Virus record (IMG/VR): IMGVR_UViG_2706794696_000003
Strand: one strand, 5' to 3'
From: a virus
Taxonomy: Duplodnaviria; Heunggongvirae; Uroviricota; Caudoviricetes
DNA length: 9,605 nt
How positions within the stretch are numbered: position 1 is the first letter of the stretch; every line of letters begins with the position of its first letter. The translations under genes were made by a program, and so were the position numbers. The notes beneath the pieces were generated by a model. The model saw nothing but the letters and a program-made list of their open reading frames with translations. It searched no databases and had not been told where the DNA came from. Positions 2,857-9,496 of this stretch are shown here, piece by piece.

Positions 2857-2891
2857 TCCCCGCGGTGCTCAAAACACCTCGAAAGCGGTAT

Positions 2892-2919
2892 CCACACCCG
2901 ATAGCCATGTGGTTTTTTT
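2892..2919 (+). terminator. weak hairpin plus U-tract (possible attenuator or alternative tR')
   Basis: CCACA / TGTGG stem with an 11-nt loop followed by seven T (2913-2919). The stem is short, so confidence is low. Confidence 0.3.
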
Positions 2920-3062
2920 GTGTCCAGAATTCTTGGTTTATGACCGGGTGTGCGGCTAATACAATACCAGCAATGGAAATACGCCCGCCGACTTTCGACG
3001 GTTTTGAGCGCCCGGTCACCCTCTCAAAAGGGGTAAATCAAAATATTCGAAAGGACATGTCT

Positions 3063-3626
3063 ATGAATCGCACGTCTATTGAAAAACTCCCGTCACTTAC
3101 GCATAACCATCTTCCTGTCATGACAACAGAGCTGCTGGCTGATTTGTACGGAACAGAGCGCCAGCGTTTGACAAACAATTTCAATCGAAACAAAGAACGG
3201 TTTATAGAAGGTAAACATTTTTTCCTGATAGAAGGTGATGCGTTACGAGAGTTGAAGAACGAAAACTCTTTAAGAGTTTCTGTGAAAATTGCCCGTAACG
3301 TTCGCTCCCTCATCCTCTGGACAGAACGTGGCGCAGCCCGTCACGCCAAAATGCTCGAAACCGATCAGGCGTGGGAAGTGTTCGAAAAACTGGAAGACTG
3401 TTATTTCAACCAGAAACAGCCACCAGCGGCACAAAACACATCTATCGAAAATGATGGATGCGCATTACTGAGCCACTTCGATAAACACGGTCAGGTTGAG
3501 TTCACGGAAAAGGTACCCGCCGATGCGATGGTATGTACTCTGGAACGGTTTAAATTTTATCTGGAGCAACACGGGTGGATCGTTGCCCGTAAAGAGCAAC
3601 TGGTGGAGCGGTTGATGCGGTTTTAA
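3063..3626 (+). CDS. ORF6N-domain protein (antirepressor/Rha-like N-terminal domain, uncharacterised C-terminus)
   Basis: 187 aa from ATG 3063 (AAGGA at 3051-3055, 7-nt spacing). The segment ELLADLYGTERQRLTNNFNRNKERFIEG...LILWTERGAARHAKML matches the ORF6N domain pattern as recalled. The longer ORF-track start at 2865 is rejected because it begins inside the predicted promoter and has odd composition. Confidence 0.8.
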   Translation: MNRTSIEKLPSLTHNHLPVMTTELLADLYGTERQRLTNNFNRNKERFIEGKHFFLIEGDALRELKNENSLRVSVKIARNVRSLILWTERGAARHAKMLETDQAWEVFEKLEDCYFNQKQPPAAQNTSIENDGCALLSHFDKHGQVEFTEKVPADAMVCTLERFKFYLEQHGWIVARKEQLVERLMRF

Positions 3627-3701: not shown

Positions 3702-3727
3702 AAACCCGCCGATGAGCGGGTTTTTTT
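3702..3727 (+). terminator. intrinsic terminator after the cargo gene
   Basis: AAACCCGC / GCGGGTTT stem with a CGATGA loop, followed by seven T (3721-3727). Confidence 0.7.
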
Positions 3728-3815: not shown

Positions 3816-3892
3816 GGCCCTTTAGCTCAGTTGGTCAGAGCGAGCGACTCATAATCGCCAGGTCGCTGGTTCAAGTCCAGCAAGGGCCACCA
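3816..3892 (+). tRNA. tRNA-Ile2 type (genomic anticodon CAT, ileX/ileZ-like)
   Basis: 77 nt. Cloverleaf folded by hand: acceptor GGCCCTT / AAGGGCC, anticodon loop CTCATAA, T-loop TTCAAGT, 3' CCA encoded. Overall sequence resembles the lysidine-modified Ile2 tRNA, not elongator Met. Confidence 0.8.
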
Positions 3893-3893
3893 A

Positions 3894-3970
3894 CCACCAC
3901 TAGCTCATCCGGATAGAGCATCAACCTTCTAAGTTGACGGTGCGAGGTTCGAGTCCTCGGTGGTGGGCCA
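3894..3970 (+). tRNA. tRNA-Arg (anticodon TCT, reads AGA)
   Basis: 77 nt. Acceptor CCACCAC / GTGGTGG, D-stem GCTC/GAGC, anticodon stem TCAAC/GTTGA with loop CTTCTAA, T-arm CGAGG-TTCGAGT-CCTCG, 3' GCCA. Begins 1 nt after the previous tRNA. Confidence 0.85.
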
Positions 3971-3972
3971 GC

Positions 3973-4048
<76 letters not shown>

Positions 4049-4051
4049 TAT

Positions 4052-4126
<75 letters not shown>

Positions 4127-4254
4127 GCGAGATTTGAGACGAAGGTTGTTATTTGCACTGACACAATATTGTGTGGGAATGTCTGACTCCTTACCATCTC
4201 CTGTTCTGTGATGTTGTTTTGTTGCAGTTCCAGTGCTCTTTTTTCAGCACCAGA

Positions 4255-4449
4255 ATGGTGCATTGTCNNNNNNNNNNNNNNNNNNNNNNNNNNNNNNNNN
4301 NNNNNNNNNNNNNNNNNNNNNNNNNNNNNNNNNNNNNNNNNNNNNNNATTGGTGTGCTGGGAAGTCTGCTTCTGGGGCTTCTGACTTATCTGACAAATCT
4401 GTATTTCAAAATAAGAGAAGACAAGCGTAAGGCTGCGAGAGGTGAATAA
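4255..4449 (+). CDS. S: class II holin / pinholin (phage 21 S-like), interrupted by an N-run
   Basis: The post-gap segment 4348-4449 encodes [33 protein letters not shown], matching the C-terminal half of the phage 21 S pinholin as recalled; its stop overlaps the endolysin start (TAATG). The N-terminal part lies in or before the N-run. ATG 4255 is in frame only if the gap length is exact, so the start is provisional. Confidence 0.55.
4268..4347. other. run of 80 N (assembly gap or masked bases)
   Basis: Directly visible in the sequence. It falls inside the holin coding region. Confidence 0.99.
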
Positions 4450-4946: not shown

Positions 4947-5407
4947 GCAGAGTCACCGCGATTATCTCCGCTCTGGTTATCTGCATCATCGTCTGCCTGT
5001 CATGGGCTGTTAATCATTACCGTGATAACGCCATTACCTACAAAGAGCAGCGCGACAAAAACGCAAGAGAACTGAAGCTGGCGAACGCAACCATTACTGA
5101 CATGCAGCAGAGACAGCGTGATGTTAATGCACTCGATGCTAAATACACGAAGGAGTTAGCTGATGCGAAAGCTGAAAATGAAACTCTGCGCGCTGATGTT
5201 GCCGCTGGTCGTCGTCGGTTGCACATCAAAGCAGTCTGTCAGTCAGTGCGTGAAGCCACCACCGCCTCCGGCGTGGATAATGCAACCAGCCCCCGACTGG
5301 CAGACACCGCTGAACGGGATTATTTCACCCTCAGAGAGCGGCTGATGACGATGCAGATGCAACTGGAAGGGGCACAGGAGTATATCCGCACTCAGTGCAT
5401 TAAGTAG
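4943..5407 (+). CDS. Rz: Rz i-spanin (inner-membrane spanin subunit)
   Basis: 154 aa. N-terminal transmembrane helix ([18 protein letters not shown]) followed by a coiled-coil periplasmic domain; very similar to lambda Rz as recalled. Start ATG 4943 overlaps the endolysin stop. Confidence 0.9.
5163..5345 (+). CDS. Rz1: Rz1 o-spanin (outer-membrane lipoprotein), embedded in Rz in the +1 frame
   Basis: 60 aa. Lipobox LVVVGC followed by a proline-rich segment (PPPPPAW); lies entirely within Rz in a different frame, the classical embedded-spanin arrangement. Confidence 0.85.
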
Positions 5408-5449
5408 CCTTTTTATCGTGGTAAACATTTCGCAGGGTATGAGGTATTT

Positions 5450-5800
5450 ATGCCATCACTAATCCCACGTGCCTGCCGTAAGCGTGGATGTGCAGGTACA
5501 ACCACAGACAGTTCGGGTTACTGCGATAAACATCGCGGTGAAGGCTGGGTGCAGCACCAGCGCGGACTGAGCCGCCACCAGCGTGGCTATGGCTCAAAAT
5601 GGACGGTGATTCGTGCCCGTATTCTGAAGCGCGATAAAGGTCTGTGTCAGTTGTGTCTGCGTGTCGGTGTGGTGAGCGAGGCGAAAACCGTCGACCACAT
5701 CATCCCGAAAGCGCATGGCGGAACAGACGCAGACAGCAACCTGCAGAGTCTGTGCTGGCCCTGCCATAAAGCGAAAACAGCGCGCGAACGAATCCGGTGA
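5450..5800 (+). CDS. HNH endonuclease (packaging-associated, HK97 gp74-like)
   Basis: 116 aa. Cys-rich zinc-binding pairs (CRKRGC, CDKH, CQLC, CWPCH) and the HNH motif (DHIIPKAHGG...N). GAGGT ribosome-binding site 4 nt upstream. Located immediately upstream of the terminase genes. Confidence 0.9.
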   Translation: MPSLIPRACRKRGCAGTTTDSSGYCDKHRGEGWVQHQRGLSRHQRGYGSKWTVIRARILKRDKGLCQLCLRVGVVSEAKTVDHIIPKAHGGTDADSNLQSLCWPCHKAKTARERIR

Positions 5801-5818
5801 TAATTATTCTCACTTGTA

Positions 5819-5880
5819 GGGAGGGGCGGGGCAAATCCCTGTGACCTGACGTCTTCCGGACTGCCCGCCCCATCGTTTTT
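5819..5880. other. G-rich inverted repeat between HNH and terminase small subunit; candidate cos/packaging site or terminator
   Basis: GGGGCGGG at 5822-5829 pairs with CCCGCCCC at 5864-5871 across about 34 nt, followed by a T-run at 5876-5882. The G-rich motif is reminiscent of lambdoid cohesive-end sequences. Functional assignment is inference. Confidence 0.3.
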
Positions 5881-5921
5881 TTATACCCGCGAAAAATGAA
5901 ATTTAACCAGGAGTGCCGCAT

Positions 5922-6416
5922 ATGGCTGGAACGGCGGGGCGTTCCGGGCGTCGCCCCAAGCCAACGGCGCGCAAGGCGCTGGCCGGAAACCCCGGCAAGC
6001 GAGCCCTGAACAAAGATGAACCTGTTTTTACGCCCATCAAAGGTGTTGAGCCACCAGAGTGGTTCGCTGAAGAAGATCTCCCTCTCGCCACGATCATGTG
6101 GCAACTGACAACCAAAGAACTCTGCGGTCAGGGCCTGCTGTGCGTGACTGACCTGGCGGTACTTGAGCGGTGGTGCGTGGCCTATGAGTTCTGGCGACGT
6201 GCCGTGAAAAATATTGCCATACAGGGCAACACCATCACCGGTGCAATGGGCGGCAGGGTCAAAAATCCGGAGCTGACCGCCAAAAAAGAACAGGAGTCCG
6301 AGATGAGCAGCACGGGGGCAATGCTCGGACTCGACCCCAGCAGCCGCCAGCGTCTGATTGGCCTGGCGGGGCAGAAGAAAGCCACTAACCCGTTTCTGAA
6401 AATTATCGAATCATGA
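5922..6416 (+). CDS. terminase small subunit (P27 family)
   Basis: 164 aa. N-terminus [27 protein letters not shown] is typical of P27-family small terminases. AGGAG at 5909-5913, 8 nt before ATG 5922 (ORF track used GTG 5913). Stop overlaps the large-subunit start (ATGA). Confidence 0.85.
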
Positions 6417-8146
6417 GCCGGAAATCTTACCCCAACGTAAATGCTGCAAATCAGTATGCCCGGGATGTCGTGCGCGGAAAGATTGTTGCCTGCCAGTTTG
6501 TGATTCAGGCCTGCCAGCGCCATCTTGATGACCTGATGGCGGAAAAAAGTAAGTCGTTTCGTTACCGCTTCGACAAGGACCTGGCTGAACGGGCCGCGAA
6601 ATTTATTCAGCTGTTGCCGCACACCAAGGGGGAGTGGGCATTCAAACGGATGCCCATCACGCTGGAGCCGTGGCAGCTATTTGTGATCTGCTGTGCGTTT
6701 GGCTGGGTCAATAAAGGCACCCGGTTGCGCCGCTTCCGGGAGGTGTACACCGAAATCCCCCGTAAGAACGGCAAATCAGCAATCTCTGCCGGTGTTGCCC
6801 TGTATTGTTTTGCCTGTGATAACGAGTTTGGCGCGGAAGTGTATTCCGGTGCCACGACAGAGAAACAGGCGTGGGAAGTCTTTCGCCCGGCGCGACTGAT
6901 GTGTAAACGCACACCCATGCTGACGGAAGCGTTCGGGATTGAGGTTAACGCCTCAAACATGAACCGTCCGGAGGATGGCGCGCGGTTTGAACCGCTGATC
7001 GGCAACCCAGGTGATGGTTCATCACCCCACTGTGCCGTGGTTGATGAATATCACGAGCATGCCACCGATGCGCTTTATACCACAATGCTTACCGGGATGG
7101 GGGCGCGACGTCAGCCACTGATGTGGGCCATCACCACCGCCGGGTACAACATTGAGGGGCCGTGCTACGACAAGCGGCGGGAAGTCATCGAGATGCTCAA
7201 CGGCTCGGTGCCTAACGATGAACTGTTCGGGATCATCTATACCGTTGATGAAGGTGACGACTGGACCGGCCCGCAGGTGCTGGAAAAAGCCAATCCAAAT
7301 ATTGGCGTGTCGGTTTATCGCGAATTTTTGTTAAGTCAGCAGCAGCGTGCGAAAAATAACGCCCGTCTGGCAAACGTCTTTAAAACAAAACACCTCAATA
7401 TCTGGGTGTCGGCGCGTTCGGCGTATTTCAACTTGGTGAGCTGGCAGAGCTGCGAGGATAAATCACTGACCCTTGAGCAGTTCGAGGGGCAGCCGTGCAT
7501 TCTGGCCTTTGACCTGGCGCGTAAGCTGGATATGAACAGCATGGCGCGACTTTATACCCGCGAGATTGACGGTAAAACGCATTACTACAGTGTGGCCCCG
7601 CGTTTCTGGGTACCGTATGACACGGTGTACAGCGTCGAGAAAAATGAAGATCGACGGACAGCCGAACGCTTTCAGAAATGGGTGGAAATGGGCGTTCTGA
7701 CCGTTACCGATGGTGCGGAGGTGGATTATCGCTACATCCTCGAGGAGGCCAAAGCGGCGAACAAAATCAGCCCGGTCAGTGAGTCACCCATCGACCCCTT
7801 CGGGGCGACCGGGTTGTCACATGACCTTGCTGATGAAGACCTGAATCCCGTCACTATCGTCCAGAACTTCACCAATATGTCCGATCCGATGAAAGAGCTG
7901 GAAGCAGCGATTGAATCGGGACGTTTTCATCATGACGGCAATCCCATCATGACCTGGTGTATCGGCAACGTGGTCGGCAAAAACATGCCGGGTAACGATG
8001 ATGTGGTGAAACCCGTCAAAGAGCAGGCGGAAAACAAAATCGATGGTGCAGTTGCGCTGATTATGGCGGTTGGCAGAGCCATGCTGTACGAGAAAGAAGA
8101 CACGCTGTCTGACCACATTGAGTCCTACGGGATCCGCTCGCTTTAA
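6413..8146 (+). CDS. terminase large subunit
   Basis: 577 aa. Walker A-like motif (PRKNGKS), an acidic ATPase motif (VVDEYHEH) and a C-terminal nuclease-like region; classical position after the small subunit with translational coupling. Confidence 0.95.
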
Positions 8147-8157
8147 CTGAGGTAATT

Positions 8158-8340
8158 ATGATCATGCTGATTCTCGCGCCTCTGGTGGGCGTGCTGGGTG
8201 CGCTTTTGCTGGCGTATGGTGCCTGGCTGATTTATCCCCCGGCGGGTTTTGTTGTTGCCGGGGCGCTGTGCCTGTTCTGGTCGTGGCTGGTGGCGCGATA
8301 TCTCGACCGTACACGGCAGTCTGTCGGCGGAGGTAAATAG
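8158..8340 (+). CDS. small membrane protein (60 aa, two predicted transmembrane helices)
   Basis: GAGGT at 8149-8153, 4 nt before ATG 8158. Two hydrophobic stretches ([21 protein letters not shown] and [16 protein letters not shown]) with a basic C-terminus. Its stop overlaps the predicted portal start. Confidence 0.5.
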
Positions 8341-9496
8341 TGTTCTTTTCGGGATTATTTCAACGAAAAAGCGATGTGCCGGTGACCACGCCAGCAGAAC
8401 TGCTGATGCTATCGGGCTGTCATACGACACCTATACCGGAAAGCGGATCAGTAGCCAGCGGGCCATGCGCCTGACGGCGGTCTATTCTTGCGTCAGGGTG
8501 CTGGCAGAGTCTGTTGGTATGCTGCCCTGCAGTCTCTACAAAATCAGCGGTACCCTGAAAACACGGGCGGTGGATGAACGACTGCATAAGTTGGTTTCGG
8601 CAAAACCTAATGGCTACATGACACCGCAGGAATTCTGGGAGCTGGTTATTGTCTGCCTGTGTCTACGGGGGAATTTTTACGCCTACAAGGTAAAGGCACT
8701 GGGAGAAGTGGTGGAGCTTCTTCCGATAGATCCGGGCTGTGTGGAACCGAAGCTGAACAGCCAGTGGCAGCCGGTTTATCAGGTGACGTTTCCGGATGGT
8801 TCCGTGGATGTGTTGACCCAGAATGAAATCTGGCATGTGCGCACCCTGACGCTGGATGGACTTGTCGGGCTGAATCCCATTGCGTATGCGCGTGAGGCCA
8901 TTTCACTGGCAGCGGCAACCGAGGAGCACGGTGCCAGGTTGTTTAGTAATGGTGCGGTGACATCCGGTGTGTTGCGTACGGAACAAAAGCTCACGCCGGA
9001 TGCTTACGAGCGTCTGAAGAAAGATTTTGAGGAGTGTCACACGGGGCTTGGCAATGCTCACCGCCCGATGATTCTGGAAATGGGGCTGGACTGGAAGTCG
9101 ATGGCGCTGAACGCCGAGGACAGTCAGTTCCTGGAAACCCGCAAGTTTCAGCTGGAAGAAATCTGTCGTCTGTTCCGGGTGCCGTTGCACATGGTGCAGA
9201 ACACCGATCGCGCCACCTTCAACAATATCGAAGAGCTGGGGCTGGGATTTATCAACTATTCACTGGTGCCGTATCTGACCCGCATCGAACAGCGGATCAA
9301 CACCGGACTGGTACGAAAAAGTAAGCAGGGCGTTTATTACGCCAAATTTAACGCCGGGGCGTTACTGCGCGGGGATATGAAGTCCCGTTTTGAAGCCTAC
9401 GCCACCGGGATCAACTGGGGAATTTACTCTTCCAATGACTGCCGCGACCTGGAAGATATGAATCCGCGTCCCGGTGGTGTAATGCCGATCAGTTAA
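8340..9496 (+). CDS. portal protein (HK97 family), with an apparent -1 frame discontinuity near the 5' end
   Basis: The main ORF (frame of 8249-9496) carries the conserved portal core from about QRAMRLTAVYSCVRVLAESVGMLP. A strong ribosome-binding site (GGAGG 8329-8333) precedes GTG 8340, which opens a 44-codon frame ([26 protein letters not shown]...) ending at TGA 8472-8474. The main frame has no ATG, GTG or TTG between 8340 and ATG 8465. The span 8340-9496 is 1157 nt, not a multiple of 3. Confidence 0.8.

Follow-up and report, generated by a model that had tools for sequence, protein, structure and literature searches.

Between a gene for an HNH endonuclease and one for a small terminase there is a gap of 121 nt (5801-5921), and the question is whether it is an ordinary intergenic region that ends one transcript, or the place at which the phage genome is cut for packaging. 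The gap lies in a 9,605-nt stretch of tailed phage DNA (IMG/VR record IMGVR_UViG_2706794696_000003), referred to throughout as the window. A sequence-only reading of the window had drawn attention to a G-rich inverted repeat followed by a T-run within the gap, and had offered two explanations, namely a cos site or a terminator isolating the lysis and packaging transcripts. Homology to mapped sites indicates that positions 5819-5904 very probably form a cos site, that of a temperate phage which resembles SfV, SfI and phiP27 and packages its DNA with an HK97-type module.

Genetic context of the gap

The gap is bounded on the left by the HNH stop codon TGA (5798-5800) and on the right by the ATG of terS at 5922, where the SfV annotation also starts the gene (orf1, record position 68); a ribosome-binding site, AGGAG (5909-5913, + strand), precedes the ATG by 8 nt. 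Both neighbours had been named from the sequence and were confirmed by Pfam matches; the HNH gene (5450-5800, + strand) encodes a 116 aa protein (PF01844, E 1.6e-16), an accessory nuclease of HK97-type terminases, and terS (5922-6416, + strand) encodes a small terminase of the P27 family of 164 aa (PF05119, E 3.9e-20). These are followed by a large terminase gene of the HK97 gp2 type (6413-8146, + strand; 577 aa, PF03354 and PF20441) and an HK97-family portal gene (8249-9496; PF04860), giving the order HNH-gap-TerS-TerL-portal in which all of the packaging genes are intact (4/4). The HNH protein is 34% identical to HK97 gp74 (E 2e-10) and TerL is 26% identical to HK97 gp2 across ~520 aa (E 8e-31), while TerS is 48% identical to L35 of phiP27. 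The locus is therefore that of an HK97-type, HNH-associated cos both by gene position, between HNH and terS and 5' of terL and the portal gene, and by the homology of its TerL to gp2 and of its HNH protein to gp74.

Upstream of the gap the window encodes a holin-lysozyme-Rz lysis cassette and, further to the left, an early region with genes for a DnaB-type helicase (49-1581), RusA (1835-2206), the antiterminator Q (2175-2582) and an ORF6N-domain protein (2865-3626). Four tandem tRNA genes (3816-4126; Met-CAT, Arg-TCT, Thr-TGT and Gly-TCC) are located between the Q/ORF6N region and the lysis cassette, and a terminator-like hairpin with a T-run (3702-3723) is found just 5' of them. The holin gene region (ORF 4171-4449, PF04971) contains 80 N at 4268-4347, which are either masked or unresolved, and a 60-aa ORF between terL and the portal gene (8158-8340) is without a Pfam match. 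None of the complete E. coli genomes covers more than 59% of the window, so that these modules, although each is common by itself, are seldom combined in this way.

Predicted position of the cut and the cohesive end

A megablast search of positions 5440-6420 against phage records returned several linear records that begin or end within the gap. For SfI, both ends of the virion DNA have been sequenced directly, and comparison with the prophage revealed a 10-nt gap, 5'-TGCCCGCCCC-3' (PMC3636060). The same ten nucleotides are present at 5862-5871 (+ strand) in the window, where they are the equivalent of cosN and include the right repeat arm (5864-5871). The SfI record finishes with ...GGACTGCCCGCCCC (also written ...ACTGCCCGCCCC, i.e. 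at CCCGCCCC) and its first base is the next one. The 'cos-site' feature of phiP27 in GenBank is CGCCCGCCCC, at the same aligned position as the overhang of the window, and the record of the Edwardsiella phage EPP-1, the assembly of which was corrected with PhageTerm (PMC11043334), ends with ...ACTGCCCGCCTC and has the aligned +1 as its first base. The last bases of HK97, HK022 and a third complete contig are ...GACCGCCGCCAAA, again in the same aligned position, and a fourth contig of the HK97 group (L151, IMG/VR 2595698466) stops 10 nt earlier, exactly after the AC, which corresponds to the predicted bottom-strand nick. The four relatives with reported ends (SfI, phiP27, EPP-1 and the HK97 group) therefore concur on the position of the cut. 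Direct homology to sites whose ends are mapped (SfI, phiP27, EPP-1 and HK97/HK022) thus supports the suggestion of a cos site, and the comparison with the known HK97 cos that had been proposed places the HK97 and HK022 ends at the position corresponding to 5871/5872. As a separate observation, a bacterial draft contig of Edwardsiella anguillarum (NZ_VZOX01000051) ends exactly at the predicted top-strand cut, with ...ACTGCCCGCCTC.

The dinucleotide AC (5860-5861) directly precedes the overhang here and in SfI, phiP27, HK97 and EPP-1; its invariance across the wider set of loci is partly by construction, as AC was required by the search pattern. Since a 10-nt gap was left by run-off reads from both ends of SfI DNA, and 5' extensions would have given overlapping reads, we infer that the extensions are 3', in which case the top strand would be nicked at 5871|5872 and the bottom strand opposite 5861|5862. 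The ends of HK97 carry 10-nt 3' overhangs (PMC9410871, PMC11331095), and its HNH protein, gp74, stimulates cos cleavage according to the HK97 literature. By analogy with HK97, and from the SfI run-off gap, the overhangs of the SfV/SfI group are presumably of the same 3' polarity, and by homology this copy is predicted to be cut at 5871/5872 to give a 10-nt single-stranded extension.

The first bases of deposited records agree less well with this position. Position 1 of the SfV (U82619.2) and SfIV (KC814930.1) records corresponds to 5855 of the window, a base inside the spacer from which the cut mapped in SfI lies 17 nt to the right. Depositors thus did not all choose the same end base; the SfV cos was termed 'postulated' by the authors of the SfI work (PMC3636060). 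The SfII record begins directly 3' of the HNH stop codon and that of ST64B just before terS. The scatter of these four record starts makes them an unreliable guide to the true ends in that group. A full-text literature search with the overhang strings returned only unrelated papers.

An upstream G-box at a fixed distance from the cut

The left arm of the repeat (5823-5830) is part of a longer conserved element upstream of the cut, the G-box GGGAGGGGCGGGG (5819-5831). Among 31 diverged representatives the G-box has a high information content at -53..-42, a measure which is inflated at the G3, AAA and AC positions as these were imposed by the search pattern, and it was found in loci of HK97, phiP27, SfV, EPP-1, Klebsiella, Pantoea, Providencia, Xenorhabdus and Yersinia. 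Directly 3' of it is CAAATC (5832-5837; consensus YAAAWS), the last base of which lies 34 bp from the top-strand cut. This distance is the same in SfI, phiP27, HK97 and EPP-1, and it recurs in every other locus with the pattern; more than 200 loci, with approximately 100 different cos sequences, have it, ranging from HK97 to Xenorhabdus. The intervening 22-nt spacer (5838-5859), which contains the palindrome GACGTC (5848-5853), is variable in sequence and of low information content but invariant in length.

Anchored on the cut, the loci can be aligned without gaps as a G-box (GGGGAGGGGCGGG-like), YAAAWS, 22 nt, AC and a 10-nt, mostly C-rich stretch with the consensus YGCCSSCCNN. The loci were drawn from phage records, from IMG/VR (80 loci found with the HNH protein of the window), from genomes (41 loci found by HNH alignment) and from a set of 80 HK97-type loci. 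The architecture was present in 73 of the 80 IMG/VR loci, in 79 of the 80 HK97-type loci and in at least 34 of the 41 genome loci, which represent ~20 genera; in 7/41 genome loci the full architecture was not recognised.

The distance from the HNH stop codon to the G-box is 18 nt here versus ~270 nt in HK97, whereas the distance from the G-box to the cut is constant, which indicates that the G-box is part of cos and not of the HNH gene. As it is common to loci with all types of TerS, it is probably read by a conserved component, either TerL, the HNH protein or the portal-motor complex. It is possible, though we hold this only tentatively, that the left arm belongs to an undescribed upstream subsite of HK97-type cos sites, made up of the G-box (GGGRAGGGGCGGG-like) and YAAAWS and kept at 34 bp and 24 bp from the nicks in the top and bottom strands, respectively. 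Such a subsite would be present from HK97 to prophages of Xenorhabdus, Providencia, Pantoea and Yersinia, whatever the type of TerS or the sequence of the overhang. In the HK97 literature consulted only the downstream TerS site is mapped and an upstream element is not described, and this strictly spaced G-box common with HK97 is the only part of the site that may be new. By position the box is cosQ-like, and it could be either an equivalent of cosQ, i.e. a termination signal, or a dock that positions the HNH protein for the bottom-strand nick.

Two further groups of loci were also inspected. In three Yersinia loci (Y. proxima, L138; Y. massiliensis, L139; Y. vastinensis, L140) the G-box, (T)AAAAGTTC (TGAAAGTTC in L139 and L140) and the spacing of 22 nt plus AC are kept, and AC is followed by ten nucleotides, CTATCATCGT, that are not rich in C; provided that the spacing rule applies here too, the scaffold would be unchanged and the cohesive end another one. 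Two Paraburkholderia loci (L136 and L137) encode HNH homologues that are 51-54% identical, and ~150 nt downstream, a short way 5' of the next gene, have G8 with TAAAAA or TACAAAT. A G-run and an A-tract are visible in these two loci, and the remaining cos architecture could not be aligned.

The downstream element and the small terminase

To the right of the cut is a third conserved segment, TTTTTTT-ATA-CCCGCG-AAAAATGAAATTT (5876-5904), comprising the T-run (5876-5882), a GC core (5886-5891) and an A-tract (5892-5896). All relatives with a terS of the SfV/phiP27 type keep T5 at +7..+11, AYA, and (A/C)CCGCG-AAA at +15..+23, and both the TerS of the window and that of phiP27, which are 48% identical, are associated with (A/C)CCGCGAAA downstream. 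Loci with a type-C TerS (~23% identical) have CCYTTCCTCRCATCGCCGCAGGTTCGAAAACT8 in place of the T5/CCCGCG element, and HK97 has CTAACCCGATTTTTTT at this position. As the downstream element changes with the type of TerS, it is the putative TerS recognition site, and by analogy with HK97 the segment 5876-5904 is likely to be cosB-like in this sense. The minimal TerS site of HK97 spans +15..+29, CTAACCCGATTTTTT, and owes its specificity to a C:G pair at position 21 and to a bendable A-tract (PMC11331095); the window has CCCG at +15..+18 and A5 at +21..+25.

Support for the HK97 TerS-DNA model was also sought through homology of the proteins. The TerS of the window had no BLASTP similarity to HK97 gp1 and no hit in a PDB sequence search. 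When the core of its AlphaFold model (pLDDT >90) was compared using Foldseek, the highest TM scores among the listed matches were to HK97 TerS (8pop_A, 0.55; 6z6e, 0.50), which is suggestive but not significant (E >1). Without sequence similarity to gp1 and with a non-significant fold match, the HK97 model of the TerS site is transferable only as an analogy.

The inverted repeat and alternative explanations

The repeat that had attracted attention is exact. An exhaustive repeat search recovered it as two perfectly complementary 8-bp arms, GGGGCGGG (5823-5830) and CCCGCCCC (5864-5871), which enclose 33 nt (about 34 in the sequence-only reading), and the right arm is followed by ATCG and then T7 at 5876-5882. 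Inverted repeats of at least 8 bp with a loop of no more than 60 nt arose in 139 of 2000 dinucleotide shuffles of the 121 nt (7%; p ~0.07), and nine such repeats are present in the 9.6-kb window. The fold z-scores of the gap region are between -1.2 and -2.0 (-1.2 to -1.5 for RNA); for 5816-5884 the RNA minimum free energy is -27 kcal/mol and the DNA fold is -13.1 kcal/mol (z = -2.0). The Rfam covariance models gave no match at E <=1 on either strand of 5300-6400. The 8-bp repeat alone is therefore within chance, and it is the separate conservation of each arm in relatives that exceeds chance.

A GC-rich stem followed by a T-run at the end of a gene block would be expected of an intrinsic terminator at which the lysis/HNH transcript stops, so that the packaging genes are insulated from it, and the stem of eight G/C pairs, with seven U beginning 4 nt later and the folding energy given above, invites this explanation. 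The geometry is wrong, however, as the 33-nt loop and the 4 nt between stem and T-run are not the short loop and immediate U-tract of such terminators, and a terminator scan made no call at the stem, yet called the hairpin at 3702-3723; the RNA z-scores of the stem region are also unremarkable. Nor are a hairpin and an adjacent U-tract maintained in relatives, where the C-rich arm and the T-run lie at different distances (the T-run is at +5, +7, +24 or +38, counted from the end of the arm) and where changes in the last bases of this arm are not compensated in the left one, and the T-run itself belongs to the conserved T5-AYA-CCCGCG element. The Q antiterminator encoded in the window is a further argument, since with Q present late transcription would read through terminators; in lambdoid phages the Q-modified late transcript passes terminators and extends from the lysis genes through cos to the head genes. 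We consider a terminator that isolates the lysis and packaging transcripts to be unlikely on these grounds, although a weak terminator role in the repressed prophage is conceivable. A DNA hairpin or cruciform, or a dyad-symmetric site recognised by terminase or the HNH protein, is less likely still. The DNA fold is the most favourable of the z-scores, the arm centres are 41 bp apart (~4 helical turns), and the centre of the repeat (-25) roughly matches short spacer dyads in some lineages (CAGCC/GGCTG, GGGGC/GCCCC and GGGCA/TGCCC), but no single dyad centre is prominent among the relatives. Pairs were counted on the 31 representatives, which differ from one another at more than 6/60 positions; all eight pairs form in only two of these (the window and phiP27), with a median of 4, and the paired fraction in register (0.544) is no higher than that obtained after a shift of the partner by 1-4 nt (0.536-0.633). 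The pair (-49,-1) is GC in 9, GA in 11 and AA in 8 representatives, the final bases of the right arm may be CC, TC, AA, TA or GA with no compensation on the left side, and the predicted Yersinia overhang CTATCATCGT is unable to pair with the G-box despite having the same G-box and spacing. The pairing is thus neither register-specific nor accompanied by compensatory changes, and a hairpin or cruciform was rejected.

The least probable explanation, which we regard as scarcely tenable, is that the repeat is a chance feature of a non-functional gap, or that the phage packages by a headful (pac) mechanism without a cos. The frequency of such repeats in the shuffles is compatible with chance, but each arm is conserved across genera at a fixed spacing, the overhang is identical to the one mapped in SfI, and TerL is of the HK97 cos type within an intact set of packaging genes. 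With a cos site as the preferred explanation, the repeat retains a limited meaning, as its right arm is in the overhang and its left arm in the separately conserved G-box; it does not stand as a functional unit. The repeat as such is incidental and not a conserved hairpin, arising because a G-rich box happens to be located upstream of a C-rich overhang.

A smaller dyad within the spacer, centred at -24.5 (-30..-19; 5842-5853 of the window), was also considered, having appeared promising in four lineages, and was rejected; it is perfect in 5/31 representatives, with 0.41 of positions paired, slightly more than in slid controls (<=0.35). The spacer of the window has GAC...GTC and the palindrome GACGTC at this position.

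Comparison with known cos sites

The cos sites of SfI, SfV, SfII and SfIV share with the window the 10-nt TGCCCGCCCC and the gene order lysis-HNH-cos-terS (P27)-terL. From 5840 to at least 5989, into the start of terS, every base of the window agrees with SfV (100% identity), including +1 (A, which is G in SfI). To the left of 5840 the two differ; the window has the phiP27-like GGGGCAAATCCC versus GGGTCAAATCTC in SfV, and its HNH gene, G-box and initial spacer bases are of the phiP27 kind. In the Stx2e phage phiP27 (AJ298298, feature 21806-21815) the HNH gene is 94% identical and there is no difference in G-box, spacing or AC; in the overhang only the first base is changed (C for T), and ACCCGCGAAA downstream is common to both, whereas the spacer and the sequence after +1 are unlike those of the window. 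The phiP27 TerS is the founding member of the Pfam family to which the TerS of the window belongs, yet the two share only the 48% identity noted above. An IMG/VR contig (L021) has an identical cos and ~96% identity to the window across 2.7 kb.

HK97 is more distant. Its cos resembles that of the window in having a G-run followed by (AT)CAAATC, with 34 bp between the latter and the cut, a C-rich overhang of 10 nt, CGCCGCCAAA, that is preceded by AC, and CCCG with an A/T-tract downstream, and its TerL and HNH proteins are homologous, but its TerS is not detectably related in sequence, its overhang differs at 5/10 positions and its G-run cannot form an 8-bp repeat with its overhang. The cos of lambda has the tripartite layout cosQ-cosN-cosB (PMC6739421). 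The window follows the same logic of an upstream element, a nick site and a downstream TerS-binding region, without sequence similarity; lambda differs in its 12-nt 5' extensions, in having gpNu1 and gpA of other families, and in having no HNH protein. The upstream box here is located a few turns before the nearest nick, as is cosQ in lambda. The site is not, however, of the lambda type, as TerL belongs to PF03354/PF20441 (families that include HK97 gp2), TerS to PF05119, and the overhang in the mapped relatives is 10 nt.

The pattern of similarity changes at 5839-5841, inside the cos spacer, where a phiP27-like left module meets an SfV-like right module. Positions 5540-5839 are 97-100% identical to phiP27 and to an IMG/VR locus (L025), and as the similarity to SfV takes over from 5840, the crossover lies inside cos. 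The cos of the window is therefore a natural hybrid. Junctions inside cos were also seen at other loci; L189 is HK97-like on its left side and has a different sequence from the last four overhang bases onward, and L178 diverges directly after AC.

Discussion

The cos reading is right and already documented; the site is real and essentially identical to those that have been mapped. It is an intact cos, inside either a prophage or a circularly joined genome, and consists of three parts, which are the G-box with CAAATC (5819-5837), the nick region AC|TGCCCGCCCC| and the downstream element (5876-5904). Following the HK97 model, TerS would mark the T-tract/CCCGCG/A-tract of the downstream element, and TerL, stimulated by the HNH protein encoded immediately upstream, would make staggered nicks at 5871/5872 on the top strand and 5861/5862 on the bottom strand. 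This would leave the 10-nt 3' extension TGCCCGCCCC on the right virion end and its complement on the left end. Packaging would then proceed rightwards from terS and stop at the next cos, with the motor stalled by TerS bound downstream. The G-box and CAAATC, at a fixed 34 bp whatever the type of TerS, would occupy the position of the lambda cosQ. The proteins assigned to the upstream box and to the downstream element are those suggested by the distribution of each element among relatives and by the analogy with HK97.

For annotation, this fixes the genome ends of this prophage family, with the top-strand cut after 5871 and the overhang TGCCCGCCCC, and the eye-catching inverted repeat should not be taken for a terminator or a hairpin. 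The cos segment was matched in 1187 of 5426 complete E. coli genomes, and as it is so common, a correct cos call is useful for setting prophage boundaries, for predicting the type of packaging and for recognising satellites that might borrow it. The junctions within cos show that the conserved box can act as a crossover point between HNH-side and terminase-side modules.

If the upstream subsite exists as proposed, the box would occupy the portal/motor channel while the motor stalls at cos. The reconstituted HK97 system, which uses a cos fragment of -312..+472, is suited to probing whether the G-box is needed in cleavage or termination, and a role for the G-box would be relevant to the placement of the second, HNH-assisted nick.
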